From NCBI GenBank assembly GCA_009779745.1, contig WRDR01000004.1, positions 3,713 to 67,712 of the forward strand: DNA of 64,000 bases, written 5' to 3'. Below the pieces are notes generated by a model. That model was not told the origin of the DNA. It was given only the letters and a program-made list of their open reading frames with translations, and searched no databases. The position numbers were made by a program, and so were the translations under genes. Below, in pieces: positions 5,328 through 55,729 of the stretch (positions are counted from its first letter, which is position 1; each line of letters starts with the position of its first letter). This DNA is from Alphaproteobacteria bacterium. GTDB lineage: Bacteria; Pseudomonadota; Alphaproteobacteria; UBA9219.

Positions 5328-6638
5328 ATGACAGCACATAATCCATACATAGTCAGCCTTGTTGCGGATGGTGACGAAAACAAACAGAGTTTCTTAAACT
5401 TAGACATAAGTACTCTGCATATAGATTTTGCCAACCTTAAACCAGAAGAATTTGGATTAAGTCCTGCCGACTTGGACATAAGTCCTTATCTTGTCATATT
5501 CGACAAGAAATATGCGCTTTTGAAACAACTGCCTGATATTGTCAAAACATCAATCGAAGCAAACATTAAGGAGAAGCCAGAATTTGTTCAGGAGATAGAA
5601 TTTGATTCTACTTGCGACACTTTGAATCTAGACGAACTGCAAAAACTGCTCGCATCAGAAAACAGAAAAGACGAGTTACAATCTATACGCGGACTGAAGA
5701 GAATAGATGGAAAAGACAATACTGCCAATATAAAACTGTTCTCATATTTAAGCAGGGAATTGAAAGCAAAAGTATGCGCTGTTGTTGCATTGGAAAAGTA
5801 TTATCCAAACAGTGATGATTATAATAGAGACGATATGATTCACATTCGGGACTATATTGTGCAGAAAGTGGACAATATGGACAAAGCCGAAGTGAGTAGG
5901 CTGAAACCGGATAGCTTTACTAAAGCCGCTACACAAGAAGCAATGTACGAAGAAGCGGAAACTTTTTTTGAGGCTGAGCGAGTTAAAGCAGGTGCTACTC
6001 AAGAGCAACCCGGAGATAAGGAGGAACTAAGCAGTTTCTATTTGAACGGCACGGAATATAAATTTTATAATCTATTGACAGAAAACGCTCTTAAGTACGA
6101 AGGCGATAAAATGAATCATTGTGTTGGTGGGTATTGGTCTAAGGTGGAAACGAAGGAAGTAAGAATTATATCGCTTCGTGATGACAAGAACGAGCCACGC
6201 GCAACATTGGAAATTGATACTAAGACAAATACCATAATCCAGATTCAAGGCAGAAAAAACAAAAACATCGACGAAAAATATCATCAGATGATTCTTGATT
6301 TTGTTTCTGAGCCTAAGTGGGAGATTGAGGTGAATGATAGATTTTTCGAAAAAATCCCAGCGGTTCGTTTGAAAGATGGTAAGATAAAATTGTGGACTGA
6401 TCTCGATATAGAAGATGCACGCAATGGCAACTTCACACGAGATTATGGTAATTCTTCTATGCACACAGAACAACGAAAAAATGTAAACACTATCGTCGCA
6501 TTAGGAACTGACGATGATAAGTGGTTTCTCAACAACACCTTGATCCTAAATAACATAACACAAAAGTGGTTTGAGTTGTTGCCGGGTTCCCAAATAGCTG
6601 CAAAAAAAACACCTTTTAACCATACACATAGACGGTAA
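5328..6638 (+). CDS. PcfJ-like protein (mobile-element associated), probably the 5' part of a frameshifted gene
   Basis: The segment LKYEGDKMNHCVGGYWSKVETKEVRIISLRDDKNEPRATLEIDTKTNTIIQIQGRKNKN matches my recollection of the PcfJ-domain core (L..EG..M.HCV..Y…SLR…TLE…Q.RG..N). The stop codon follows an A8 run at 6602-6609, and frame +1 stays open from 6598 into the next ORF. Confidence 0.5.
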   Translation: MTAHNPYIVSLVADGDENKQSFLNLDISTLHIDFANLKPEEFGLSPADLDISPYLVIFDKKYALLKQLPDIVKTSIEANIKEKPEFVQEIEFDSTCDTLNLDELQKLLASENRKDELQSIRGLKRIDGKDNTANIKLFSYLSRELKAKVCAVVALEKYYPNSDDYNRDDMIHIRDYIVQKVDNMDKAEVSRLKPDSFTKAATQEAMYEEAETFFEAERVKAGATQEQPGDKEELSSFYLNGTEYKFYNLLTENALKYEGDKMNHCVGGYWSKVETKEVRIISLRDDKNEPRATLEIDTKTNTIIQIQGRKNKNIDEKYHQMILDFVSEPKWEIEVNDRFFEKIPAVRLKDGKIKLWTDLDIEDARNGNFTRDYGNSSMHTEQRKNVNTIVALGTDDDKWFLNNTLILNNITQKWFELLPGSQIAAKKTPFNHTHRR

Positions 6639-13251: not shown

Positions 13252-13395
13252 TGTAGAGTGTAGAATTAGGCGTAAAGACAAAAAATGCAGAAATAACAAA
13301 GAATTATCCTTAATTCCACATTTCACATTTCACATTCCACATTCTCTTATTGACTTACAGTCCGTATTCACTTACATACTTCTAGTGTTTTGCAA

Positions 13396-18443: not shown

Positions 18444-18512
18444 TTGCCCCAATTTAAAAATTATAGAATTATTCACTATTATTGTGAGATATTCCTAATT
18501 CCTAACTCCTAA

Positions 18513-19733
18513 TTGGGTGCAGCCATGAATAAAATGAATAAAGATCCTTTGTTCTTAACCTTAAGCCAAATTCCTCTTAAAGACAAAACAGTGCTGTTAC
18601 GAGCTGATTTGAATGTTCCGGTTGCGGACGGCAAGGTCTCGGACACTACGAGGCTGCAGAGGATTCTCCCTACGCTGCGGGAGCTGGCTAATTCCAGCGC
18701 AAAGACAGTCATCTTATCTCATTTCGGGAGACCGGAGGGACGCAGAGACGATAAATACAGTCTTCGCCCTGTGGCAAAAGAGCTGGAGAAAATATGGGGA
18801 GCACCCATAGGCTTCGTAGACGACTGCATAGGAAATACTGCAAGCAAAGCAGTAAAAGCCCTAAAGCCCGGAGAGATTCTAGTGCTGGAAAACACTCGCT
18901 TCCATGAAGCAGAAACTAAGAATTCGTCCGAGTTCGCTTCCGAGATAGCAAAACTGGGAGACGTGTATATAAATGACGCATTTTCAGTATCTCACAGAGC
19001 GCACGCTTCTACGGAAGCACTGGCACGGCTTATGCCAAGAGCTGCGGGAAGATTAATGGAAGAAGAAATTAATGCTCTTGAAAGCGCATTAACGAATCCG
19101 GCAAGACCATTGGCAGCTATAGTCGGAGGTTCTAAGATTTCCACTAAACTGGAGCTGCTGGAAAACCTGGTCGCCAAAGTTGATTATTTAGTCTTGGGCG
19201 GAGGAATGGCTAACACATTTTTAGCAGCGCAAGGACTGAACGTAGCTAAGTCGCTTATTGAAAAAAACATGATAGAAACAGCAAAAAGGATTGAAGACAA
19301 TGCTAAAAAGCATAACTGCGAGATAGTCCTGCCTTGCGATGCTGTTGTTTCAACGAAAATGGAACACGGAGCGCACACCGATACAGTCTCTGTTGATAAA
19401 GTACCTGCCGGGCATATGATACTGGATATCGGACCCGATACTGTGAACAAAATAGACGATGTGCTTTCTTTGTGTAAGACTATAGTTTGGAACGGACCCT
19501 TGGGAGCGTTTGAGTTCAAGCCGTTTGATTCCGGCACGAACGCCATAGCTCACATAGTAGGTGATTTAACTAAAGAAAACAATGTTATGTCCATAGCAGG
19601 AGGAGGAGATACCGTAGGAGCACTGATAAATTCCGGAGTGATTGATGAACTAAGCTACGTTTCCGTTTCCGGAGGAGCGTTTCTTGAGTGGCTGGAAGGA
19701 AAAACTCTTCCGGGAATCGAAGCACTAAAATAA
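18513..19733 (+). CDS. pgk: Phosphoglycerate kinase
   Basis: The PGK N-domain (KTVLLRADLNVPVADGKVSDTTRLQRILPTLREL) and C-domain (GGGMANTFLAAQG…IAGGGDT) are both present. The protein is 406 aa, and the true start may be a few codons downstream. Confidence 0.9.
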   Translation: MGAAMNKMNKDPLFLTLSQIPLKDKTVLLRADLNVPVADGKVSDTTRLQRILPTLRELANSSAKTVILSHFGRPEGRRDDKYSLRPVAKELEKIWGAPIGFVDDCIGNTASKAVKALKPGEILVLENTRFHEAETKNSSEFASEIAKLGDVYINDAFSVSHRAHASTEALARLMPRAAGRLMEEEINALESALTNPARPLAAIVGGSKISTKLELLENLVAKVDYLVLGGGMANTFLAAQGLNVAKSLIEKNMIETAKRIEDNAKKHNCEIVLPCDAVVSTKMEHGAHTDTVSVDKVPAGHMILDIGPDTVNKIDDVLSLCKTIVWNGPLGAFEFKPFDSGTNAIAHIVGDLTKENNVMSIAGGGDTVGALINSGVIDELSYVSVSGGAFLEWLEGKTLPGIEALK

Positions 19734-19954
19734 TGTGAAATTTGAAATGTGAAATGTGGAATTAGGGCTGCTGTAATAGAATCTTCCAATAAACAGAAAT
19801 AAGAGTGTGTTACGCATGATACTTAATGCTAAACTTTAATCACAATTATTTCTAACATTCAGAGTCTTGTTTATTTTAAATTTACTTTTGTTTAGCATCA
19901 TGTGAAGCTATACTGTTTTGTGATTCTATGAATTCTAATAACTATTAAGATTGT

Positions 19955-23475: not shown

Positions 23476-24003
23476 TTAAGCTCCCTGCTTGCTTCTTGCC
23501 GACATAACCCTTGCCAGCTGACCCGCAGGAGCCTGAAGAACACCGGCAATCTTAGTCGCAGGTGCCTGAACCAAACCAATAATCTTTGCTCTAAGCTGAT
23601 CCAGAGAAGGCAGCGAAGCCAGCATTTTAACCTGCTGCGCCTCCATTAGCTCTCCGTTCATAACAGCTCCAACAACCTTGAAGCTCTCGTTTTTCTTAGA
23701 GAACTCTGCCGATACCTTAGCCGCAGCTACAGGATCCTTAGAAAAAGCAAGTACAGTCGGACCCTGCAAAAATTTCTCCAGCGCAGAGAACGGTCCCTTT
23801 TCAATCACCCGCTTTATCAGAGTATTTTTTGCTATCTTAAGCCCTACGCCTTCCGCCCGCATAGCAACTCTGAGAGATCTTGTTTGATCGGCATTAAGGC
23901 CCATCTGTTGATTTACAACGATGATAGAAGCATCTTTTATCTCATCACCAATTTCTTTGACTAGCTTTTCTTTTTCCAGCCTGTTTTCACTTAACTCGGA
24001 CAT
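23476..24003 (-). CDS. rplJ: 50S ribosomal protein L10
   Basis: The protein is 175 aa with the L10 fold. It lies directly upstream of rplL, separated by a 65-nt spacer. Confidence 0.9.
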   Translation of the reverse strand: MSELSENRLEKEKLVKEIGDEIKDASIIVVNQQMGLNADQTRSLRVAMRAEGVGLKIAKNTLIKRVIEKGPFSALEKFLQGPTVLAFSKDPVAAAKVSAEFSKKNESFKVVGAVMNGELMEAQQVKMLASLPSLDQLRAKIIGLVQAPATKIAGVLQAPAGQLARVMSARSKQGA

Positions 24004-25523: not shown

Positions 25524-25706
25524 TACTTTATCTCTTACTTTAGATATTTGTCCCGATAGTCTTCCTGCCCGAATAATAATCCGCCAAGAAACGTGATGAA
25601 TTGCACCTATGCAACCACCCTCATTTTCGGAAATTGGCTTTCTTATAGGCGAAATTACGGCGAAAAGTCAATAGAAATGTGGAATTATTAGAAATTATAG
25701 TCAATT

Positions 25707-26450
25707 CTAAATTTTACATTCTAAATTACACAAAGGGCACTCTTCTTTTCCGGAAAAACTGCACTTATTCATGATGCCCTTATCGCAAAACTCGCATAAT
25801 GCCCTAGTACTAGGCATGATTACAGATCCTTTAGTCACAATAAATCCCTTATCTTTAAAGGTTTGCAGCGTCCTTGATAAAGTCTCCGGCTTTATGCCCA
25901 AGTACGAGGCTATATAAGACTTATCAAACGGCAGAACTATGTCTTGTCCGTTAGGATCTGTCATAAATCTTAGTTTCAATAAAAAGCGTCCTACTCTTTG
26001 AGTCGCAGTTTTCAGCGTCAGTCCTTCTATGTGATACCGCAGCTCTCTGCACCTCTCAGAGCACATATTAAGCATATTGGACGCAAAAATAATAGAATTC
26101 TTCTGAGCAGCGTTAACAGCCCCAACCGGTATAGATAAAACACTAACCTGCGTCAGAGCCTGAACGCTCACAGTAGATATTTCAAAATGTTCTCTGTTTA
26201 TAAAAGGTTCTGTAATAAATTCCCCTTGCCTGAACAATTGCAAAACAGTCTCTTGCCCTTCTTCATTGCCTCCGCACACTCCGCACCAGCCTTCCAATAC
26301 AACATAGTACTTAGAAATCTGATCGTCCTGAGACAGCAAAAAAGCCCCCTTAGAAAACTGCATCTTGCTAGATCCAGACAGCATCTCCTGCATTATATTC
26401 AATTCTACGTTTTTGAATATAGACAAAAAAGAATATCCTAAAAAATCCAT
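25707..26450 (-). CDS. Crp/Fnr-family transcriptional regulator with a C-terminal Cys-rich extension
   Basis: It has a cNMP-binding-like N-terminal domain and an HTH (SYIASYLGIKPETLSRTLQTFKDKGFI). After the HTH there is an unusual tail with seven Cys residues (CEFCDKGIMNKCSFSGKEECPLCNLEC). Confidence 0.65.
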   Translation of the reverse strand: MDFLGYSFLSIFKNVELNIMQEMLSGSSKMQFSKGAFLLSQDDQISKYYVVLEGWCGVCGGNEEGQETVLQLFRQGEFITEPFINREHFEISTVSVQALTQVSVLSIPVGAVNAAQKNSIIFASNMLNMCSERCRELRYHIEGLTLKTATQRVGRFLLKLRFMTDPNGQDIVLPFDKSYIASYLGIKPETLSRTLQTFKDKGFIVTKGSVIMPSTRALCEFCDKGIMNKCSFSGKEECPLCNLECKI

Positions 26451-29327: not shown

Positions 29328-29362
29328 AAAATGGAAAATAGAAAATTGAAAATGGAAAATGA
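29328..29362 (+). repeat. GGAAAAT-type heptamer tandem array (5 units), left flank of clpS
   Basis: The array reads aaaatggaaaatagaaaattgaaaatggaaaatgaaaa. Confidence 0.8.
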
Positions 29363-29681
29363 AAACACCACCGGACATGCACCCACTCCCGACAACACCG
29401 CCTTAAAAGAACAAAAGGTTAAGCTCAAACGCCCTCCGTTGTATAAAGTTATTCTGCTGAATGATGATTATACTCCTATGGATTTTGTTGTAAGTATCAT
29501 TGTTTCTATTTTCAATAAGCCCGTTGATGCTGCAAAAGCCCTGATGCTCGAGATTCATAAAAATGGTAAGGCGGTCTGCGGAGTCTACCCCTTTGAGGTA
29601 GCCGAAACAAAAATGCTCCAAGTTCTTTCTATTGCCAAAGGCGAAGAGCACCCTCTCCAGTGCGTTATTGAGAAAGAGTGA
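29331..29681 (+). CDS. clpS: ATP-dependent Clp protease adaptor ClpS
   Basis: The segment YKVILLNDDYTPMDFVVSIIVSIFNKPVDAAKALMLEIHKNGKAVCGVYPFEVAETK is the ClpS signature. The first ~10 codons (MENRKLKMEN) are encoded by the GGAAAAT repeat array, so the true start may be at 29352. Confidence 0.85.
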   Translation: MENRKLKMENENTTGHAPTPDNTALKEQKVKLKRPPLYKVILLNDDYTPMDFVVSIIVSIFNKPVDAAKALMLEIHKNGKAVCGVYPFEVAETKMLQVLSIAKGEEHPLQCVIEKE

Positions 29682-29699: not shown

Positions 29700-29724
29700 A
29701 ATTTTCCATTTTCCATTTTCAATT
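29700..29724 (-). repeat. Heptamer array in inverted orientation, right flank of clpS
   Basis: The array reads attttccattttccattttcaattt. Confidence 0.8.
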
Positions 29725-29745
29725 TATAGTGCTACCCTCTTCCCC

Positions 29746-33409: not shown

Positions 33410-38763
<5,354 letters not shown>

Positions 38764-38785
38764 TCAAATTTCCACTTTCAACTTT

Positions 38786-41700
38786 TCACATTTCGCTTTT
38801 TTCTTCGGCTTCTATCATCTGCGGCTTTTTCTGGCTCATTTCTACGTTCAAGCCCAAGGAACGAAGCTCCTTCACAAGCACGTTGAAAGATTCCGGAATG
38901 CCGGCTTCGAAATTATCCTCGCCTCTTATGATAGACTCATAAACCTTAGTGCGTCCTGAAACGTCATCGGATTTCACCGTGAGTATTTCCTGAAGCGTGT
39001 AAGCAGCACCGTATGCCTCAAGTGCCCACACTTCCATTTCTCCGAAGCGCTGTCCTCCGAACTGAGCCTTACCGCCCAGAGGCTGCTGAGTAACTAAAGA
39101 ATATGGTCCGATAGATCTTGCGTGAATCTTGTCATCAACCAAATGGTGCAGTTTCAGCATGTATATGTAGCCGACCGTAACGGGTCTATCGAATTTTTCT
39201 CCTGTTCTTCCGTCAATAAGATAGGTCTGACCTGTCTTATCAAGCCCTGCCTGTTCCAGCATGACCTCAATATCGGAACCTTTGGCTCCGTCAAATACCG
39301 GAGTTGCAAAAGGAATACCGGTCCTCAAATTAGCTGCAAGTTCCAATACCTGAACATCATTAAGCTTAGAAACGTCCTTGTTGTACATCTCGGCTCCGTA
39401 CACTTCTTTGAGTTTGCTTTTTACGTCATTCAAAGATATTAAAGCCTTTTCATTGCTCGCTTTCTGTCTTACCTGCTGTTCACAGTACCCGTCATAAACA
39501 GCAGCAACCTGCTTTCCGAGTCCGGCAGAAGCCCAGCCGAGATGAGTCTCTAAAATCTGACCTATGTTCATACGGGAAGGCACGCCCAAAGGATTAAGTA
39601 TAATATCCATAGGAGTTCCGTCTTCCATATAAGGCATATCTTCTATCGGAAGAATTCTGGAAACAACACCCTTGTTTCCGTGACGGCCTGCCATTTTGTC
39701 TCCGGGCTGCAGCTTGCGCTTCACAGCCACAAAAACCTTGACCATTTTCATCACTCCCGGAGGCAGCTCATCGCCGCGCTGTAATTTGGAAACCTTATCC
39801 TCAAATCTCTTTTTGAGAGCGTTAATCTGCTCGTCAAAAACAGCGGACAGCTTCTCAACCTGCTCCATAGTCTTGGCGTTCTTTACAGTAATCTGTCTCC
39901 ACAGAGAAGGAGCAAAAGAAGACAACGTCTCTTCGGTAATAGTGCTGTCCACAGGGAATTCCTTAGGACCTTTGTCCGCCTTCTTGCCTAAAATCAGCTC
40001 TTTCAAGTGGGCATAAAAACCGCGCTCTATGATATGACGCTCGTCATCTCTATCCTTTGCAAGACGCTCTATTTCCTGACGCTCAATAGCTATAGCGCGC
40101 TGGTCTTTTTCTACGCCTCTGCGGGAAAATACTCTCACCTCAACAATAGTTCCGTTCACTCCCGGAGGCAGCCTCAAACTGGTATCGCGCACATCGGCAG
40201 CCTTTTCTCCGAAAATAGCTCGGAGCAGCTTCTCTTCCGGAGTCATCGGACTTTCACCCTTGGGAGTAACTTTACCTACAAGAATATCTCCCGGATTGAC
40301 TTCCGCACCAATGTATACAATACCGGTTTCGTCTAAATTACGGAGAGCTTCCTCACCTACGTTGGGAATGTCTCTGGTGATTTCTTCCTGACCCAGTTTA
40401 GTATCGCGCGCCATCACCTCAAATTCCTCAATGTGAATAGAGGTGAACACATCGTCTTTCACAATACGCTCGGATATAAGTATAGAATCCTCATAGTTGT
40501 ACCCGTTCCAAGGCATGAATGCGCAAAGCACGTTGCGCCCCAGTGCCAATTCTCCGAGTTCGGTAGCAGGACCGTCAGCAATAATATCGTCTTTGCTAAT
40601 CCTGTCGCCAACTTTGACTATAGGCTTCTGAGTTATACAAGTGCTCTGATTTGAACGCTGGAATTTCAGAAGATTGTAAATGTCAACGGAAGGAGCGGAA
40701 GCATCTTGTACCTGATCGGCACGAATGACTATGCGGGTGGCATCAACCTGATCAACAACACCGGAACGCTTGGCTACAATAGTGACTCCGGAATCTCTTG
40801 CAACAACAGACTCCATGCCCGTGCCTACAAGAGGAGCATCGTTATGCAGCAAAGGCACAGCCTGACGCTGCATGTTGGAGCCCATCAAAGCTCTGTTGGC
40901 GTCATCGTTCTCTAAGAAAGGAACAAGAGCCGCCGCAACGGATACTATCTGTTTAGGAGAAACATCTATCAAATCCACATTCTCAACAGGCACAACCATA
41001 ATATCGCCGTCCGTACGGACTATGACGGTCTCGTCAACAATCTTGTTGTTCTTGTCCAGCTCAACATTAGCCTGAGCAATATTGTGCTTGCCCTCTTCCA
41101 TAGCGGACAAATACACTATTTCATCAGTAACCTTGCCGTTCTTGACCTTGCGGTACGGACTCTCGATAAAGCCGTACTGATTGACTCTGGCGTAGGTTGC
41201 CAAAGAGCTGATAAGACCGATGTTCGGACCTTCGGGAGTTTCAATAGGACATATGCGCCCATAGTGTGTCGGGTGCACGTCACGGACTTCAAAGCCTGCG
41301 CGTTCTCTGGTAAGACCGCCGGGTCCTAATGCAGAGACTCTGCGCTTATGAGTAATCTCGGACAAAGGATTAGTCTGATCCATAAACTGAGAAAGCTGAG
41401 ACGAACCAAAGAATTCTCTCACCGCAGCAGCCGCAGGTTTCGCATTTATTAAATCATGCGGCATCATAGTGTCAATCTCAATAGAACTCATGCGTTCACG
41501 TATGGCGCGTTCCATACGCACAAGACCTATGCGATACTGATTCTCCATAAGCTCGCCCACAGAGCGTACGCGCCTGCTGCCCAAGTGGTCAATATCGTCC
41601 ACCTCGCCGTGCCCGTCTTTAAGCCCGCACATAATCTTGAGAATTTTGATAATATCCTCTTTCCTTAGAGTCCTTATCTGATCATCGGTATCAAACCCAA

Positions 41701-43057
41701 GCCTAGAATTCATCTTGACTCTTCCGACCGAAGACAAATCATATCTCTCTAAGCTAAAGAACAAAGAGTGGAACAGATTATCAGCAGACTCCAGCGTAGG
41801 AGGCTCACCCGGACGCATGACTCTGTAAATGTCCAGCAATGCCTCTTCTCTTGTAGTGTTCTTGTCCGCAGCCAGAGTATCGCGCATGTAAGATCCGACG
41901 TTCACATTGTCGATACCAAGCACGGAAATCTCTTTGCCGCCCATTTTTTCGAAAATGTCCAGCTTTTCCTTTGTAATCTCGTCTCCGGCTTCGAACAGAA
42001 TCTCTCCGTTATTCTCGTCTACTATGTCAACGGAAACAAACTTCCCGATGAGTTCGTCTTCTTGTATTAATATCTCTTTAAGCCCGTTGTCCGTGAGCTT
42101 AGTCAGCAGTCTCGGCGTAACCTTAGTTCCGGCCTCTACAACAGCCTTGCCGGTCTTAGCGTTGACTAAATCATTTAAGAGCTTCAGCCCCTTATAGCTG
42201 TCTGCAACGAACGGAGTAGACCAGCCGCTCTTAGCCTTCTTATAAAGAACAGCCTCATAAAAGCCTGCTAAAATTTCTTCCTTGGACATTCCCTGCACTT
42301 CGTGGAGTTCCAAGGGTCTGCCTTCTTTCTTACGCTTTGCGCGCAGCTTTTCCGTACTCGCGGAATCCAGCGCATACAAAATAGTAGTGGCAGGCAGCTT
42401 TCTTCTTCTGTCAATACGGGCGTATGCCAAATCCTTGGCATCGAACTCGAAATCCAACCAAGAGCCGCGGTACGGAATGATTCTGGCAGAGAACAAATAC
42501 TTTCCGGACGAATGAGACTTTCCGCCGTCATGATCAAAGAAAACGCCCGGGCTGCGGTGCATTTGGCTTACGATAACGCGTTCGGTTCCGTTAATGATGA
42601 AGGTTCCGTTTGCAGTCATAAGAGGCATATCGCCCATATAAACATCTTGTTCTTTGATGTCTCTGATAGACTTCATGCCTGTATTTTCCTCGACATCGAA
42701 TACGGTCAGACGCAAAGTAACTTTAAGCGAGGCGGAGAATGTTACTCCGCGCTGCTGGCACTCTTCCACGTCATATTTAGGCTGCTCCAGCTCGTAAGCC
42801 AGAAAATCCAAAACCGCCCGCCCTGAGAAATCCGCTATAGGAAAAGCAGATGCCAGAACATCTTGCAGACCTTTTCTTTCTCTTTTGTTCGCAGGAATAT
42901 CCATTTGAAGAAACTCGTCATAGGAGCGTCTTTGAACATCGATAAGGTTTGGCATCTCTGCTATTTCAGAGATACGTCCGAAACTTTTACGAATCCTTTT
43001 TCTTCCTGTGAATGAGTTGCTTGGGTTGATGCTGAGTAGTGCGCCGTTAGTCGCCAT
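38786..43057 (-). CDS. rpoB: DNA-directed RNA polymerase subunit beta
   Basis: The protein is 1423 aa. The N-terminus …[35 protein letters not shown] is alpha-type. A 480-bp AT-rich upstream region is not preceded by rplL. Confidence 0.97.
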
Positions 43058-43536
43058 GCTTTGCCCCTCAAAACTGCTGCGTCCGGGTCTTTTAGCTAAA
43101 AATACAAGCGGACATTATCTTAAAAGCAAGACACGCACGCAAAAAAGCCGGAACGTTGTTATGTTTATATCTTTTGCTTAAAAAACGAACAAAAGACCGC
43201 TTCCCAATGATAGGATAAAATTGTATATCATTGAGCGGTAGCGCCTTTCTAGCAAATTGTCCCACAGAATATGAACTGAACTTAACAATATTGCAAGCAC
43301 AAAGTTTTGTTGTATTTCAGTGGGTTATGCTTTTTACCTTATTTCTTTACATAAAAACAGGCAAATTTTCATCTTTTTTTAATCAATTATTTTAGAGCGT
43401 TTATTATGCAGATTCTATATATGAAAGTAAAAACAGAGGCTGAATATTAACCAATATCGTGTCATAATACAACAATAAATAAAAGCACTAATATATTTAT
43501 AAATTATATCAAACATACATTTAAGAAGATAAATCA

Positions 43537-44493
43537 ATGTCTCAGATTAATGATTTAAAAAACATCATAGATAATAATAAGGACTTGCACCTTTTGCAAG
43601 AAAAGATAGCTGAAGCCAAAAAAGCCGGAAAGCCCGTTTTGGTGATAGTAGGAGAGGATCATACTATCCCTGTTTCCGCCAACTTGGAAATTTGTATTGC
43701 CAAAATTGCCAAAGACTCGGGCTTTAAGTCAGCTGCTATTGAGTTGAACAAAGAACAACTAAAAATAGCGGAAGAACAGCCCGCTAGTAGGAGAGTGGAA
43801 GTAGGCGCACATTACACTATTCCTGTCCTGAAGGGCATTGGAATAAAATGCACTCCTATGGATTCGTCCTTAAATAGAGATACGGCGAATAGAGAAAACC
43901 ATATGAGCAACGTAATATCGAACATTAATGAAGATGCAATATGTATCACTGGTATGTTGCATGTACCTTATTTAGCCGAGAAACTGAAAGAAAAATTCAC
44001 TGTTGTGTCTGTTTTGCTTCCGTCTCCAAAACTTGAGATGAATATGTCAGGAGAAGATACTGAGAGGAAAAATTGGCTATTAGATAAAAGAAATGATTTA
44101 TTGCGCTTTAGTCCAGCCCCCCCCCCCCTCAATATACCGAAGTATGGTGCTATTGCACAGGCAATTTTTGATGAACAATCTCTCTCCAAAATCGCAGAGG
44201 CACTTAATTTTGAAGAGCATATAAGGAACTTGCCCGACAGAGCAAAATTAGATAAACTCGACAAGCATATACAAGAGAGTTACTTCAAAATCATTCAAAG
44301 TGTGGTTGGAGGAACAGCTCCTGATACACAAGAGCCTACGAGAATGGTTTCGCCATTAACAGGCTTTCGAAGTGCGGGAAGAAATTTGGTGTCCATAAAT
44401 TTGGATAAACCAAAACATCCTGATGAAAGCAAAAAATTAGATAAGGAAATGTATGAGCAAATGCTGAAGCTTTGCGATACCTTGAAGAAGTAA
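43537..44493 (+). CDS. Hypothetical protein with an in-frame poly-C(12) tract; weak Tiki/TraB/ChaN-like GxxH…GxxH pattern
   Basis: The protein is 318 aa. A C12 homopolymer at 44117-44128 encodes SPAPPPLN. The possible paired motifs are VLVIVGEDHT and ITGMLHVPYL. No confident homology was found. Confidence 0.45.
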   Translation: MSQINDLKNIIDNNKDLHLLQEKIAEAKKAGKPVLVIVGEDHTIPVSANLEICIAKIAKDSGFKSAAIELNKEQLKIAEEQPASRRVEVGAHYTIPVLKGIGIKCTPMDSSLNRDTANRENHMSNVISNINEDAICITGMLHVPYLAEKLKEKFTVVSVLLPSPKLEMNMSGEDTERKNWLLDKRNDLLRFSPAPPPLNIPKYGAIAQAIFDEQSLSKIAEALNFEEHIRNLPDRAKLDKLDKHIQESYFKIIQSVVGGTAPDTQEPTRMVSPLTGFRSAGRNLVSINLDKPKHPDESKKLDKEMYEQMLKLCDTLKK

Positions 44494-44548
44494 GCACAAT
44501 AGTAATGTTTTTAAAATGATAGGGTTGTGACCATTGACCACTGCCCCG

Positions 44549-44594
44549 TCAGTCGCTTCGCGACTGCCACCCCTTCGCCAGCGAAGGGGAATAT
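44549..44594. repeat. Compound hairpin element (cagtcgcttcgcgactg + palindrome ccccttcgccagcgaagggg, with ATTCCCC…GGGGAAT ends) between the convergent 43537 gene and uvrD
   Basis: This is a near-perfect palindrome. A second copy, tattccccttcgccagcgaaggggaata, lies at 55658-55685. Confidence 0.7.
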
Positions 44595-46567
44595 GCACTC
44601 ACTCCTAAACTCCTCACTTCTTGATTGTACTCATCTCCATTTCCAATTTTCCATTTTACATTTTCCATTTTCTCAATGTGCTCCTCCGGCAGTTCGTCTA
44701 TAAACCTAGACGGAACAGGTCTTATCCAGTGCCCATACAAAAATCTGTTTGCTGCGCATGATATGTATGCCTTCTTTTTTGCTCTGGTTATTCCCACATA
44801 TGCAAGCCTTCTTTCTTCTTCCAGCCCTGCTATTCCGTGCTCATCTATGGCTCTTTTGCTGGGAAACAAATCTTCTTCCCACCCGGGCAGAAACACTATT
44901 TCAAATTCCAGCCCCTTGGCTCCGTGCAGCGTCATGATGCTGACCTGATCTCCGAACGTGTTTTCAGCCGCCTCCATAACAAGGCTCACATGCTCAAGAA
45001 ACGCATTTATGTTTTCGAACTCCGATATAGCATGTATAAGCTCTTTCAGGTTTTCTATCCTGGATTCGGACTCCGGCGACTTATCCGCAACAAGAGCCGC
45101 CATATATCCGGACTCATCAAGCACCATTTCTGCCACTTCCGAATGAGGCAGCGAAGAAAGAAGCCCCCTCCACCTCTGAAAGCCTTTCACAAAGTCTGAT
45201 AAAGAGTGTTTTAATTTCGGCTTAAGAGTATCGGTTTCAATCAACTGTCCTGCCGCAGCCATCAAAGAAATATTATACTCTCTCGCAGTACTTTGTATAA
45301 TCTTCAATGACGCTTCGCCTATTCCTCTTTTGGGCGTATTGATTATTCTCTCAAATCCCAAATCATTATCGGAAGACACTAATAACCGCAGATACGCTAT
45401 AGCGTCCCGTATCTCTGCCCTCTCGTAAAATCTGGCTCCTACCAGCACTCTGTACGGCAGTCCGATTTGAATAAAACGCTCTTCAATAACTCTGGTCTGA
45501 AACCCTGCCCTGACCATAACCGCTATTTCGTTAAGCCTAGTTCCTCTGTTATTCAAAAGCTCTGTCTCATCGGATATGTATCTGGTTTCCTCTCTGTCAT
45601 CAAAAAAACTCTGCACAGAAACTTTTTCGCCGTCCTCTGCCGCTGTCCACAGAGTCTTTCCCAGCCGCATATTGTTATTAGAAATCAAACCGGACGCCGC
45701 ACCCAGTATATGTCCTCCGGATCTATAATTCTGTTCAAGCCTTATGACTTTTGCATTAGGGAAATCCTCTTCAAACCTAAGAATATTTCCAACTTCTGCG
45801 CCCCTCCACCCGTATATAGACTGATCCTCATCTCCCACACAGCAAATGTTCTTATGCGATTGCGCCAAAAGCCTCAGCCATAAATACTGTACGGTATTCG
45901 TATCCTGATACTCGTCTACCATAATGTACTTAAACCTGCGCTGCACAGAAGCCAGAATATCCGGATTCTCTCTAAGCACAGTCAAATGATGCAAAAGCAA
46001 ATCTCCGAAATCGCACGCATTTAAAGTCTTCAGCCTTTCCTGATACGTGTCATACACCGCTCCCATTTTGCCGTCTGCAAACGAACCCTTTTCATTCATA
46101 ACGTCCTTAGGCAGCCTAAACTTATCCTTCCACCTGTTGATTATCGCGGCTGCAATCTTCGGCTGATATTTTTTCTCGTCTATGTCCAACGCCAAGAATA
46201 TCTGTTTAACCAGCCGTATCTGGTCGTCCTCGTTCAGAATAGTAAAATTATCTCTCAAGCCCACAAGCCCTGCATGAGGTCTGAGCAGCCTCAACGCCAA
46301 AGAGTGAAACGTACCGATAAACCAGCCGTCTACAGACATAGACAGGAGCTCGGAAACTCTGTTCTTTATCTCGTTCGCAGATTTGTTGGTAAATGTGACT
46401 CCCAGTATCTGAGACGGGAAAACATTTTCGGTTTTCAGCAGATGCACGAACCTAACAGTAAGAACTTTAGTCTTTCCTGTCCCTGCTCCGGCCAAAACAA
46501 GCACCGGACCTTCCGTGGCTTTAACTGCCTCTTGCTGAGCAGGATTTAGGGAGTCTAGGTATTTCAT
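44549..46567 (-). CDS. uvrD: UvrD/Rep-family ATP-dependent DNA helicase
   Basis: The Walker A motif (VLAGAGTGKTKVLTVR), DEYQDTN and helicase motifs III-VI are present. The protein is 672 aa. The C-terminal codons (…KWKIGNGDEY…) are encoded by the GGAAAAT repeat array, so the true stop may be assigned with less certainty. Confidence 0.9.
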   Translation of the reverse strand: MKYLDSLNPAQQEAVKATEGPVLVLAGAGTGKTKVLTVRFVHLLKTENVFPSQILGVTFTNKSANEIKNRVSELLSMSVDGWFIGTFHSLALRLLRPHAGLVGLRDNFTILNEDDQIRLVKQIFLALDIDEKKYQPKIAAAIINRWKDKFRLPKDVMNEKGSFADGKMGAVYDTYQERLKTLNACDFGDLLLHHLTVLRENPDILASVQRRFKYIMVDEYQDTNTVQYLWLRLLAQSHKNICCVGDEDQSIYGWRGAEVGNILRFEEDFPNAKVIRLEQNYRSGGHILGAASGLISNNNMRLGKTLWTAAEDGEKVSVQSFFDDREETRYISDETELLNNRGTRLNEIAVMVRAGFQTRVIEERFIQIGLPYRVLVGARFYERAEIRDAIAYLRLLVSSDNDLGFERIINTPKRGIGEASLKIIQSTAREYNISLMAAAGQLIETDTLKPKLKHSLSDFVKGFQRWRGLLSSLPHSEVAEMVLDESGYMAALVADKSPESESRIENLKELIHAISEFENINAFLEHVSLVMEAAENTFGDQVSIMTLHGAKGLEFEIVFLPGWEEDLFPSKRAIDEHGIAGLEEERRLAYVGITRAKKKAYISCAANRFLYGHWIRPVPSRFIDELPEEHIEKMENVKWKIGNGDEYNQEVRSLGVSAYSPSLAKGWQSRSD
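44636..44672 (-). repeat. Heptamer array (inverted orientation) within / after the uvrD 3' end
   Basis: The array reads ctccatttccaattttccattttacattttccattttc. Confidence 0.8.
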
Positions 46568-46588: not shown

Positions 46589-46613
46589 GAATGGAAAATT
46601 GAAAATGGAAAAT
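46589..46613 (+). repeat. Heptamer array, left flank of the four-helix-bundle gene
   Basis: The array reads ggaatggaaaattgaaaatggaaaatt. Confidence 0.8.
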
Positions 46614-46993
46614 TATTTTATATTTTTAGCGGTTTTATTGACTATTGCCGTGAGCAATTTCTCCAGTTCAACACAATCATTATAAATTGACTCTTTCATT
46701 TTAGAGTCAATATAATCAGTTGCAGCAAGTAATTTAATCCAATATTTTGTTTCGCTGCATTCTTTAAGTGAAATATTCATTTTCATCAAAAAGTCTTTTT
46801 TGCTTTGCCCTTGCTGAACCTCTGAAACGTTCGCTCCAATACTTGTACCACTTCTTAAAATCTGTTTCGACAAAACATATTCTTTCTTGTTATTAGCCAA
46901 ATATTGATATAATTTGACAATCCTAACAGCAAAAGCAAAACTTTTATCACTAACAATATTTTCTTTTTTTAATTTTCCATTTTCCATTTTCAA
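46613..46993 (-). CDS. Four-helix-bundle protein (23S rRNA intervening-sequence protein family, TIGR02436-like)
   Basis: The segment KSFAFAVRIVKLYQYL…QILRSGTSIGANVSEVQQGQSKKDF…ISLKECSETKYWIKLL is the signature of this family. The gene is bracketed by inverted GGAAAAT arrays. Confidence 0.7.
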   Translation of the reverse strand: MKMENGKLKKENIVSDKSFAFAVRIVKLYQYLANNKKEYVLSKQILRSGTSIGANVSEVQQGQSKKDFLMKMNISLKECSETKYWIKLLAATDYIDSKMKESIYNDCVELEKLLTAIVNKTAKNIK

Positions 46994-47004
46994 TTTTCCA
47001 TTTT
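46971..47004 (-). repeat. Heptamer array (inverted), right flank of the four-helix-bundle gene
   Basis: The array reads taattttccattttccattttcaattttccatttttt. Confidence 0.8.
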
Positions 47005-48051: not shown

Positions 48052-48149
48052 AATTCATCTCCGTTTTTCGAACGCCTAAGAATCACTATAACACATTAAT
48101 GCGGAATGTGAAATTAGGAATGAGGAAATAGAAATTAAAAAATTATAGC

Positions 48150-48784: not shown

Positions 48785-51644
<2,860 letters not shown>

Positions 51645-52432: not shown

Positions 52433-52466
52433 GGAAAGGAAAATGAAAAATTGAAAATGGAAAATA
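52433..52466 (+). repeat. Heptamer array downstream of cysE
   Basis: The array reads ggaaaggaaaatgaaaaattgaaaatggaaaat. Confidence 0.8.
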
Positions 52467-52520
52467 TGTAAAAATTACAAATTGTTAACAGACTATTCCT
52501 AATTCCTAATTTCACTTTTA

Positions 52521-52554
52521 ATTTTCCATTTTCTATTTTCCATTTTCCATTTTA
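52521..52554 (-). repeat. Heptamer array (inverted) upstream of the Hsp70-like gene
   Basis: The array reads ttaattttccattttctattttccattttccatttta. It forms an inverted pair with 52433-52466 around a 55-bp spacer. Confidence 0.8.
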
Positions 52555-52603: not shown

Positions 52604-55174
52604 ATGTACATAGGAATCGACTTAGGCACCTCAAACAGCTCTATAGCAGGCATTATTGACGGTAAACCCAGAGTTTTCCGCCCGGCAGACGGAGGCGAAG
52701 TTCTGCCCTCTATGATATATTTCGATAAAAGAAACCACAGATTGTTCGGACGCAGAGCATATGACAAAGCGTTAATATCTCCTGAAAATGTGATTTCCGG
52801 GTTTAAAAGGCTTATGGGTTCGGCAACTAAACTGGAAGTCAAATCGCTGAAACAGGAACTGTCGCCCGAAGAATGTGCCGCAGAAATCATAAGACAGCTT
52901 CTGGCTCAAGCCCAAACTGAAACAGGCAATGAGAAAATAGACGGAGCAGTCATTACTATTCCGGCATCTTTCAATCAGACGCAATCTCAGGCAACATTAA
53001 AAGCAGCGCAAATGGCCGGGCTCGAAAGAGTGGACCTTTTGCAGGAACCAATAGCAGCCGCTATAGCCTCTATGCAGGGCGCAAAGAGATCCGGAAAGTT
53101 TATAATATACGACCTCGGCGGAGGAACTTTCGACATAGCTCTGGCACAAGCAATGAACGGAGACGTGACTATACTGGCGCATCAAGGCATCAACATGCTG
53201 GGCGGGCGTGATTTTGACAGAATGATAGTGAAGAATATCGTAAGACCTTGGCTTGAGAAAATGTTCTCATTGCCTAAGGGTTTTGCTGCGAAAAAAGAGT
53301 ATGTAAAAGTGCTCAGAATAGCGCAGCTCGCAGCGGAAAAAGCAAAGATAGATTTATCTTCAATGGACAGCACCAGCATCATAGCCTCTGATGAAGAAAT
53401 AGGAGTGCAGGACCAGAACGGCTTGGAAATGTATCTGGACATACCGCTTTCTAAGGAACAGTTTAACGAGATAATCCGCCCTTACGTACTGAAGACCATA
53501 GATGTTATACGCAATATGTGCGAAGAAGCGGAGGTAAAGACTACGGACATAGACCGCATAGTCTTCATAGGAGGCTCCAGCAAAATACCTCTGATACGGG
53601 ATATAGTCGCCGCAGAACTGGATATTGCCGCAGATATGAAAACAGATCCCATGACTACTGTCGCAATAGGAGCTGCTTATTACTGCGAGAGCAGAGAGTG
53701 GTCTGTTGATAATAAAAGCTCTTCCGGTGCCGCTAAGAAAGCAACAGTATCGCAAGATGCGAAAGATAAGAAGTTTGAAATATCATATGCGTTCACTGCA
53801 AGAACTCCTAATGATAAATCTGAAATAACAGTGATATTGTCTAAGGAAAAGCCCGCAGATTTTAAGATAAAAATAAAGAATCAAGAGTGGGATTCCGGAA
53901 GCCTGCCTCTTATGGACGAACTCACAATACAGATTCCTCTGAATAATATAGGCGATAATGTTTTTGAAGCTCTAATTTTTGACAAGAACGGAAATGAACA
54001 GTCCGAGTATACTCAGAACATAACTATCAAAAGGCTTATAGCTACTGCCTCACAGATTCCCGCAGGGCATACCATAGCGATAAAAGTACGCAATCCGGAA
54101 ATTCAAACTGAAAATAAGCTGGTGAATATAATTACTAAGGGCGAGCTGCTCCCTACGCAAGGCGAGTGTTTTTTCGAGAGCACTAGGACTCTTAATCCGG
54201 GCAGGACCGGAAGCATAAGTTTCGAGCTGTTTCAGGTAGAGTATCAGGAAAACATAAATCTCAACTTGTGCATAGGAGCGTTTAGAATAGAAGCCTCCGA
54301 CTTGCCACCTAATACAAAAATAGAAAAAGGAACTCCGCTGATTTTTACGTGGGACATGAGCGAGAGCGGGATTCTGGAAGCGACAGTAACAATAAAAGCA
54401 TCGGACAGTAAAATAATAGAGCTGAAAACTCCTAAATTTTATGCGCCTCAGGCAGGACAGGTTTCTTTTGCAGGAGAAAGCGGCGTTACCTTTTCCAGAG
54501 AATTGATGAAGCGCGCATCTGAAGATTTAGGCGACCTCATAGCGGCAACAGGTCCTGATGCAGGAGCGGAAGTGAACATTTTAAAGATAAAACTGCAGGA
54601 ACAGGAAGAGCTGATTAATGACAATCCCAGTGATCCGGAAATCATATGCAAGATATGTGAAGAGATACGCTTCATACGTCAGGATATAGCAAAAATCGGC
54701 AAGATGTATTTCAAGGCTATGATGATACGAAGGCTTGGAAAACTGGAGGCGGTATTCAACAGAGTCGCAGGAGAGTTTGCCAGTGAAAAAGAGAAACAGT
54801 CTTTTAATACTTACAAAGATAAAATACACGATATACTCGATGAAATACATATAAAAGCAGATATTGACGGCAATTCGGCTATGGTATTAAAAGTGAAGAA
54901 GTATAAGGCGAAGATGAAGAGCCTGTTCTTCTCGATAGCATGGCGCAACGATGAATACATCAAGACTTGGTTTGAAAAGCTGGTTGAAGAAAAGTATATG
55001 TTTACGGATAAAACAGCTTATGAAGAGCTTCTCCGTCTTGGAAATGAGAGCATAGAAAAAGGCAATTTTGATAATCTGAGAGACATAGTGAAAAAATTGC
55101 TGGACGAGAGGATTTCTCTGAACGTGAGCGAAACCGCCGATGAGCTTGCGAATATAATCGCGAAGGCGGAGTAA
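52604..55174 (+). CDS. Atypical Hsp70-family protein: a canonical N-terminal actin-like ATPase domain fused to a ~480-aa non-canonical C-terminal region
   Basis: The Hsp70 NBD motifs are present: IGIDLGTSNS, IIYDLGGGTFDIAL and VFIGGSSKIPLIRD. No recognisable DnaK substrate-binding or lid sequence follows residue ~375. Instead there is a β-rich segment followed by a K/E-rich helical C-terminus. The total length is 856 aa, against ~640 for DnaK. Confidence 0.75.
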   Translation: MYIGIDLGTSNSSIAGIIDGKPRVFRPADGGEVLPSMIYFDKRNHRLFGRRAYDKALISPENVISGFKRLMGSATKLEVKSLKQELSPEECAAEIIRQLLAQAQTETGNEKIDGAVITIPASFNQTQSQATLKAAQMAGLERVDLLQEPIAAAIASMQGAKRSGKFIIYDLGGGTFDIALAQAMNGDVTILAHQGINMLGGRDFDRMIVKNIVRPWLEKMFSLPKGFAAKKEYVKVLRIAQLAAEKAKIDLSSMDSTSIIASDEEIGVQDQNGLEMYLDIPLSKEQFNEIIRPYVLKTIDVIRNMCEEAEVKTTDIDRIVFIGGSSKIPLIRDIVAAELDIAADMKTDPMTTVAIGAAYYCESREWSVDNKSSSGAAKKATVSQDAKDKKFEISYAFTARTPNDKSEITVILSKEKPADFKIKIKNQEWDSGSLPLMDELTIQIPLNNIGDNVFEALIFDKNGNEQSEYTQNITIKRLIATASQIPAGHTIAIKVRNPEIQTENKLVNIITKGELLPTQGECFFESTRTLNPGRTGSISFELFQVEYQENINLNLCIGAFRIEASDLPPNTKIEKGTPLIFTWDMSESGILEATVTIKASDSKIIELKTPKFYAPQAGQVSFAGESGVTFSRELMKRASEDLGDLIAATGPDAGAEVNILKIKLQEQEELINDNPSDPEIICKICEEIRFIRQDIAKIGKMYFKAMMIRRLGKLEAVFNRVAGEFASEKEKQSFNTYKDKIHDILDEIHIKADIDGNSAMVLKVKKYKAKMKSLFFSIAWRNDEYIKTWFEKLVEEKYMFTDKTAYEELLRLGNESIEKGNFDNLRDIVKKLLDERISLNVSETADELANIIAKAE

Positions 55175-55657: not shown

Positions 55658-55685
55658 TATTCCCCTTCGCCAGCGAAGGGGAATA
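55658..55685. repeat. Palindromic hairpin tattccccttcgccagcgaaggggaata (second copy of the element at 44570-44589)
   Basis: Over 24 nt it is near-identical to the 44.5-kb copy. It lies between convergent genes (peptide ORF + / dapB −). Confidence 0.7.
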
Positions 55686-55729
55686 TTCTCTCACAGCAAC
55701 CACCAATTCCTAATTCCATATTTCAAATT

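Follow-up and report, generated by a model that had tools for sequence, protein, structure and literature searches.

A C12 homopolymer within a predicted TIKI-fold enzyme gene of a termite-gut alphaproteobacterium, a candidate slippage-prone tract

The C12 tract and its reading frames

This study concerns 64,000 nucleotides (nt) of an alphaproteobacterial contig (GenBank assembly GCA_009779745.1, contig WRDR01000004.1, positions 3,713 to 67,712; hereafter the window, 43.1% GC) and, within it, one open reading frame (ORF) that carries a long run of cytosines. The ORF list places the frame, which encodes 318 amino acids (aa), on the plus strand at 43537–44493, with a GC content of 39% compared with 44% in the neighbouring genes. 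If translation begins instead at a TTG codon at 43594, the product is the 299-aa protein called by NCBI (MCL2473660.1 and MCL2505121.1). The run consists of twelve consecutive C residues at 44117–44128 on the plus strand, in frame, where the codons GCC CCC CCC CCC CTC specify A194-P-P-P-L198. The ORF is divergent from rpoB (38786–43057, minus strand), from which it is separated by an AT-rich intergenic region (43058–43536), and is followed by two GC-rich hairpins (44550–44566 and 44570–44589, within 44548–44589) that overlap the last codons of a convergent uvrD-like ORF and fold as a pair at −34.8 kcal/mol (z −3.1). A preliminary description of this DNA had noted the in-frame run, the divergence from rpoB and the palindromic hairpin, all of which were confirmed here by direct reading and folding, and had proposed that the run is a slipped-strand phase-variation switch. 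A scan for promoter and terminator consensus sequences around the ORF found no plus-strand site upstream, and the number of sites did not exceed that in shuffled sequences.

The run stands apart from its surroundings. It is the sole G or C run longer than 6 nt across the 64 kb, the second-longest being 6 nt, and another 8.8 kb of the contig, outside the window, contains no G/C run of 7 nt or more, bringing the total covered to ~73 kb. The expected count of C runs of at least 12 nt in the window is 1.3 × 10−3 for independent, identically distributed bases, 6 × 10−4 under a first-order Markov model and 4 × 10−5 by extension from the observed CCC seeds; at a chance expectation of ~6 × 10−4, the earlier remark that the run is statistically out of place holds. 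Codon usage leads to the same result. Among the 29 confident genes of the window, proline is written as CCT (46%) or CCG (34%) far more often than as CCC (12%), and among the 22 other PP or PPP sites not one has adjacent CCC-CCC codons; under this usage the probability of A-P-P-P-L being written as 12 C is ~2 × 10−4. Because CCC is rare, never doubled elsewhere and improbable in this spelling, the C12 run is a DNA-level feature and not a by-product of a need for proline. It is over-represented relative to both composition and codon usage, the pattern expected of selection on mutability.

Frames were recomputed for altered tract lengths. Loss of one C leads to a TAA stop at 44222–44224 and a 228-aa product, gain of one C leads to a TGA stop at 44169–44171 and a 211-aa product, and C9 or C15 would keep the frame. 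The shifted frames append tails of 30 and 13 aa, respectively, without recognisable features. In the C12 frame, 121 codons from 44128, covering the tail together with the final nine codons of the linker, remain open, which only 1 in 10,000 shuffles achieves (p ~10−4), and the other two frames downstream of the tract hold 7 and 11 stops. Both this open frame and the alignment of ~30 residues past the tract with homologues identify C12 as the authentic frame.

The tract recurs in six contigs: the window, WREV01000027 of GCA_009779165.1, JGI 3300010882, ENA ERZ27257295, ENA ERZ27257304 and Logan SRR10512951. The other five match the window at 100% identity over 3.2–21 kb; across the tract all six are 100% identical, all read C12, and the tract is internal to each. 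They derive from at least four samples or assemblies processed by different pipelines (JGI, MEGAHIT k141, Logan), and the source libraries are Illumina HiSeq 2000/2500 with four-colour chemistry. The assemblies are not mutual copies, because the JGI contig has A3 at 54029 (locus L094 position 2697) where the ENA re-assembly, like the window and the Logan assembly, has A4. The A3 form splits an 856-aa Hsp70-like gene into 478- and 350-aa calls in JGI 3300010882, and reflects either an error in assembly or a frameshift allele carried by a minority in the P4 sample. Since the 121-codon frame, which matches homologues over its first ~30 residues, survives only at lengths divisible by three, and given that C12 recurs inside six contigs, the tract and its length are real; the concern that the homopolymer might be a sequencing or assembly artefact is answered in this way.

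The host is known from metagenomes. WREV00000000 is the metagenome-assembled genome (MAG) Lab288P4_bin14 of Hervé et al. 2020, recovered from compartment P4 of the hindgut of Labiotermes labralis, a higher termite that feeds on soil, and classified as Alphaproteobacteria; Reyranellales; Reyranellaceae; PMB07 group (PMC7024585). It measures 1.17 Mb at 72% completeness, with 43.4% GC and ~9.6x Illumina HiSeq coverage, and a sister MAG from the P3 compartment has ~35x coverage (PMC7024585). The genome size is estimated at ~1.5–1.7 Mb. An affiliation with Rickettsiales was considered and rejected, since by UvrD the closest relatives are Rhodospirillales-like MAGs and Azospirillum, and Reyranellaceae is the family given for the MAG. 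Higher termites are a group without gut flagellates.

A predicted TIKI-fold hydrolase with a lineage-specific tail

Residues ~20–192 of the protein (43594–44112, plus strand) form a domain of the TIKI/ChaN/Ere fold, judged from an AlphaFold2 model, the homologue alignment and a fold search. The model was built on an 18-sequence family alignment comprising the query, 16 homologues and the second domain copy of the homologue P0004, and its predicted local distance difference test (pLDDT) exceeds 90 over most of the domain; it supersedes a single-sequence AlphaFold model with a pLDDT of 35. Ranked by score, the fold search returned ChaN (2g5g, 14.1), EreC (6xcq, 12.8), a Bcr135/136-type protein (2qgm, 12.0), HopBA1 (5t09, 11.9), a second Bcr135/136-type protein (2rad, 11.6), a TraB protein (8bqs, 10.3) and RRSP (5w6l, 9.5). 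The domain has the alpha/beta fold with a parallel beta-sheet core common to ChaN, Ere, HopBA1, RRSP and PMT. The proteins found by the fold search are precisely those named as the TIKI superfamily in the paper on the RRSP structure, which defines a catalytic set of two His and two Glu residues (PMC6254334).

The catalytic set is present in our domain together with a conserved Arg, with E40, H42, E69, R119 and H142 each found in at least 16 of the 18 family sequences. The TIKI motif is reportedly also defined by Sanchez-Pulido and Ponting (2013) and by Bazan et al. (2013). All positions lie on the plus strand in the family alignment: a first G-E-x-H motif (G39 E40 D41 H42, 43651–43662), the conserved Glu E69 (43741–43743), the invariant R119 of an R-E-x-x-M motif (43891–43893) and a second G-x-x-H motif (G139 M L H142, 43951–43962). 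K32 and R119 are invariant; one sequence departs at each of G39, H42 and H142 (17 of 18 conserved), and two depart at each of E40 and E69 (16 of 18). The conserved residues fall in the motifs V-G-E-x-H, x-x-E, R-E-x-x-M and G-x-x-H. From these residues, which complete the E-x-H / E / R / H catalytic set, the domain is a predicted hydrolase.

Sequence models do not recover this assignment. Pfam gave zero matches for the 318-aa protein even at E values up to 10, and NCBIfam gave no family match, its sole hit being TIGR02530 at a chance-level E of 0.11. The protein has no significant match to the curated models PF01963, PF04187 and Ere; in 3 of the 18 family sequences TraB_PrgY_gumN scored below threshold, at best 8 × 10−5 and under the gathering score. 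A profile search against PDB sequences produced chance matches only (for example PMS1 and TIM), and Foldseek against a viral library found nothing meaningful. The suggestion of a weak Tiki/TraB/ChaN-like pattern in the preliminary description was thus upheld by the fold search and the conserved catalytic residues, and was not borne out at the level of Pfam or NCBIfam sequence families. On the strength of the modelled fold and the motifs, the protein is assigned to the TIKI/TraB/ChaN/Ere superfamily, at superfamily level only, where it is a new uncurated branch. Compared with other members of the TIKI/TraB/PrgY/GumN/ChaN/Ere superfamily, it is shorter and carries a helical N-terminal extension and a C-terminal tail that are its own. 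No N-terminal signal peptide was visible by eye.

The protein had been described as an orphan, which is not strictly so. An exhaustive phmmer search over 1.84 billion cluster representatives found 16 remote homologues (best identity 31%, weakest E ~7 × 10−4), and a profile search added two, for a total of 18 that have the domain; a word-indexed search returned the identical protein only. Matches span residues ~14–160 or 14–226 of the query. The ten homologues looked up are all single-member clusters from metagenome assemblies, and each family member looked up stands alone or nearly alone in its cluster, the source being metagenome or MAG assemblies. None of the homologues in the family alignment has a proline run at the tract position. 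G/C runs of 6 nt or more are absent from all four homologue genes checked, and a C9 and several C6/G6 runs occur elsewhere in those loci. Among individual homologues, P0004 contains two tandem domain copies; P0010 lacks the catalytic residues, with S-E-D-Q at the first motif, Q at the Glu position and T..Y at the second motif; and P0020 (L090, 6001–7203, on a 2.1-Mb contig) has as neighbours a fragment of a phage integrase, two RhuM genes and a gene with ankyrin repeats whose Pfam matches are faint. The homologue genes in loci L008 and L009 lie 8–9 GC points below their flanks. The family, comprising the query, 18 metagenomic homologues and one identical shorter gene call, retains intact catalytic residues, goes undetected by Pfam and NCBIfam models, and counts the injected effectors HopBA1 and RRSP among its nearest structural relatives. 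Sequence identity to HopBA1, a Pseudomonas syringae type III effector, and to RRSP, a MARTX Ras/Rap1 endopeptidase, is ~12–14%.

The tract lies immediately behind this domain. From the model and the family alignment, residues 193–202 (PAPPPLNIPK, 44113–44142, plus strand) form a 10-residue inter-domain linker, and the tract, 61% along the ORF, encodes the middle of it. BLASTP homology to P0003 and P0020 stops at residues 192–195; in the model a strand occupies residues 188–190, pLDDT falls below 50 at residues 195–203 and a helix follows, marking the linker as a low-confidence or disordered segment. A first alignment had made PPP appear to be an insertion relative to the homologues, and this was rejected when a domain-trimmed alignment was used. 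The lineage-specific C-terminal tail (residues 203–318, 44143–44490, plus strand), delimited by homologue searches, alignment and the frame test, has ~120 residues and is helical in the model. Its first 25–35 residues are weakly conserved in the family, and past the first ~30 residues phmmer detected no homologue among the cluster representatives. Because the tract directly follows the catalytic domain, C11 and C13 would remove only the ~120-aa tail and not the enzyme. The truncation proposed for C11 and C13 in the preliminary description therefore stands, and its simple OFF state does not, since the catalytic domain would be kept.

Neighbouring genes and repeats

The ORF occupies a variable spacer. 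By UvrD (63–68% identity) the closest genomes are uncultured Rhodospirillales-like MAGs, and the gene order ligA - GGDEF - uvrD - rpoB is retained in the nine nearest. Their uvrD-rpoB spacers range from 505 to 3081 bp, compared with 1.49 kb here, and contain unrelated ORFs; none of the nine syntenic spacers holds a homologue of the 318-aa gene. Judged by this comparison, the gene is accessory and specific to its lineage, and probably arrived by horizontal transfer. The rplJ gene (23476–24003) lies ~15 kb from rpoC (34609–38745) and rpoB, so that the rplKAJL-rpoBC cluster is split, and rpoB is preceded by uvrD instead, as in the nine related MAGs; this looks like a feature of the clade.

The neighbouring uvrD-like ORF (44549–46567, minus strand) has an unusual end. 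Its last 25–35 codons derive from a heptamer array (read KMENVKWKIGNG) and a palindromic element, and tblastn matches of UvrD to relatives end at about residue 631–648 of 671. Just downstream, the relatives encode a conserved ..GDRVxHEKFGxGxVRRV..DKLEVAF.. segment that is not seen in the uvrD ORF of the window. These observations suggest that repeat invasion or insertion of the accessory gene replaced the UvrD C-terminus. The GC-rich palindrome CCCCTTCGCCAGCGAAGGGGAATAT occurs twice in the window, at 44570–44602 and 55662–55694 with 94% identity over 33 nt, and looks like a dispersed hairpin of the repetitive extragenic palindromic (REP) type.

Tandem arrays with a period of 7 nt and 3–7 copies are dispersed through the window. 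They lie at 13313–13344, 18491–18514, 19732–19762, 25703–25727, 29328–29365, 29701–29725, 34545–34623, 38764–38785, 44636–44672, 46590–46613, 46958–47004, 48098–48127, 51615–51638 and 52438–52553. The unit TGGAAAA/TTTTCCA is present at nine sites or more, and those compared with ORF coordinates fall at gene boundaries; further units are ATTCCAC, ATTCCTA, AATGTGA, GAGAGTG and TCTCAAC. The pattern is similar to that of the STRR heptamer repeats of cyanobacteria. Since 7 is not a multiple of 3, changes in copy number inside ORF ends would also shift the reading frame. Two TGGAAAA arrays (46590–46613 and 46958–47004) flank, on both sides, a four-helix-bundle gene of the 23S_rRNA_IVP family (46613–46993, minus strand; PF05635, TIGR02436 at E 10−31) located between the GGDEF gene and uvrD. 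In at least one relative GGDEF lies almost next to uvrD, so this too may be a small gene that was inserted.

Other genes of the window include the atypical 856-aa Hsp70/actin-fold protein mentioned above (52604–55174, plus strand), of which residues ~1–360 match DnaK/HscA ATPase models far under their cut-offs and the C-terminal part of ~500 aa matches none of the NCBIfam or Pfam models scanned. A PcfJ-like protein (5328–6638, plus strand; PF14284), of a family named for a gene of the conjugative plasmid pCF10, is encoded beside topA and dprA and is possibly a mobile-element remnant. The plus-strand segment 29632–31606 encodes the flagellar (or type III) export proteins FliR and FlhB and, after them, a large TPR protein. 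Because of these export genes, the organism is probably motile; the 64-kb window contains no dedicated effector-delivery system, only flagellar FliR and FlhB.

Proposed slippage, its alternatives and their meaning

The interpretation builds on what was shown directly: the existence of the tract, the reading frames around it, its place within the fold, the family to which that fold belongs and the accessory character of the gene. We hypothesize that C12 is genuinely prone to slippage, so that the C-terminal module would be made stochastically and reversibly, with the full-length protein as the majority product, and we judge the case for this reading to be about evenly balanced. G/C tracts longer than 7 nt are classed as hypermutable, at 10−5 to 10−2 changes per division, and simple sequence repeats located late in ORFs that change protein length are documented (PMC4235727, Table 1). 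If C12 behaves in this way, it would slip during replication at roughly 10−5 to 10−2 per division, and the population would keep yielding C11 and C13 cells that make a tail-less 228- or 211-aa enzyme and are able to revert, with full-length C12 as the majority state. Such a translational phase-variation switch would toggle the C-terminal module, which might serve targeting, secretion or regulation, and would leave the catalytic domain in place. The type of gene fits contingency loci, being accessory, lower in GC, missing from the nine nearest syntenic spacers and part of a sparse, fast-evolving family. As for the slipped-strand switch of the preliminary description, its prerequisites were found: the length class, the location inside an ORF, the frameshift at ±1 C and a run that originates at the DNA level. 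We infer hypermutability, reversibility and any adaptive value of C12, and regard the tract as a credible, unproven candidate contingency locus and a candidate member of that well-known class.

Several observations weigh against slippage, and some of them also favour its main rival, an incidental homopolymer in which a proline-rich linker came to be spelled in C by drift, mutational bias or one past slippage and purifying selection holds C12 with no adaptive switching. There is no variation in tract length among the six assemblies and no contig breaks at the tract, a constancy that describes the consensus or majority allele of one near-clonal population, the two traceable assemblies stemming from a single termite colony. 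Protein collections of ~15 billion sequences, searched via cluster representatives, yielded no truncated variant or split ORF; protein scans of genome and metagenome contigs found no other relatives or length variants, and a search of metagenome contigs for the exact flanks with a variable gap retrieved no length variant. The look-up of the exact protein is itself biased towards C12, as it returns in-frame copies only. The tract is also the single one of its kind in ~73 kb, where a multi-locus phasome is not evident, and its location at 61% of the ORF with the catalytic domain spared is atypical for classical ON/OFF loci. Linker length equals that of the closest homologue P0003 (aligned stretch RFSTVQEFAYPRQWEL), with no sign of recent expansion, and the linker is disordered, so that PPP would be structurally harmless there. 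Over-long tracts elsewhere are not always variable: in Bordetella, only 6 of 9 tested were polymorphic among 90 strains. Against the incidental explanation stand the ~2 × 10−4 probability of the spelling and the lack of CCC-CCC at other PP/PPP sites, and a mutable tract that was merely a liability would be expected to be broken by synonymous changes (our inference from PMC4235727). We regard it as a real possibility, though less probable than slippage.

The remaining explanations appear less probable. Slippage by RNA polymerase, or ribosomal frameshifting aided by a PPP stall, could generate a fixed mix of full-length and tail-less protein from an invariant gene, which is compatible with slippage of the DNA. 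Transcriptional slippage on homopolymers is established in other bacteria, occurring in reduced symbiont genomes and in the programmed cases of dnaX and mxiE. As in those cases, a long homopolymer lies within an ORF of a small genome and yields defined short alternative products, here with the entire catalytic domain because both shifted frames end soon, and a constant C12 in all assemblies suits a non-genetic mechanism. Known cases are mostly A/T runs, however, unlike C12; the alternative tails of 13 and 30 aa are featureless, and no frameshift-stimulating element was noticed around the tract, although no search was aimed at one. We consider an RNA-level origin quite unlikely. Decay of a horizontally acquired accessory gene, with a slippery tract accumulating under relaxed selection en route to a pseudogene, would agree with the low GC, the absence of close relatives and the variable spacer, but the ORF runs unbroken for 318 codons, every catalytic residue is conserved, the frame downstream of the tract is open beyond chance and the sequence is identical across assemblies, which makes decay very improbable. 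Least credible of all is an artefact of sequencing or assembly: homopolymers are prone to such errors and the P4 MAG has just ~9.6x coverage, but C12 is read in the interior of six contigs from several samples or assemblies, different pipelines and four-colour chemistry, and only a length divisible by three preserves the downstream frame and its alignment with homologues.

Set beside the loci of Campylobacter jejuni, Neisseria, Haemophilus and Bordetella pertussis, the tract shares the essentials of an intragenic G/C homopolymer above the threshold of ~7–8 nt, an accessory gene and a frameshift at ±1 nt. It differs from these contingency loci in being a lone tract in ~73 kb with one length in all six assemblies, and in lying late in the ORF, after the catalytic domain, instead of in the usual 5'-proximal ON/OFF arrangement, so that a C-terminal module would be swapped or removed and the gene would not be silenced. 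The product, which by eye has no signal peptide, is not an obvious surface structure, and the host is an uncultured termite-gut alphaproteobacterium rather than a mucosal pathogen. A stronger version of the slippage reading is that an evolved switch removes, reversibly, a C-terminal module for targeting or secretion from a predicted TIKI-fold protease or esterase of an undescribed family in a non-pathogenic termite-gut alphaproteobacterium. We think this version unlikely; if it were true, cells would alternate between delivered (or localised) and retained enzyme, an instance in which phase variation of a gut symbiont acts on one module of an effector-like enzyme.

Homopolymer phase variation is textbook knowledge for a few mucosal pathogens and is poorly documented in environmental and insect-gut symbionts represented by MAGs only. 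The interest of the tract is modest until heterogeneity appears at the level of reads, and a fixed tract would be a mere curiosity of linker codon choice. If the tract does vary, it would provide a cheap read-level marker of population heterogeneity in this uncultured Reyranellaceae lineage and an example of a switch that edits domain architecture rather than silencing a gene.

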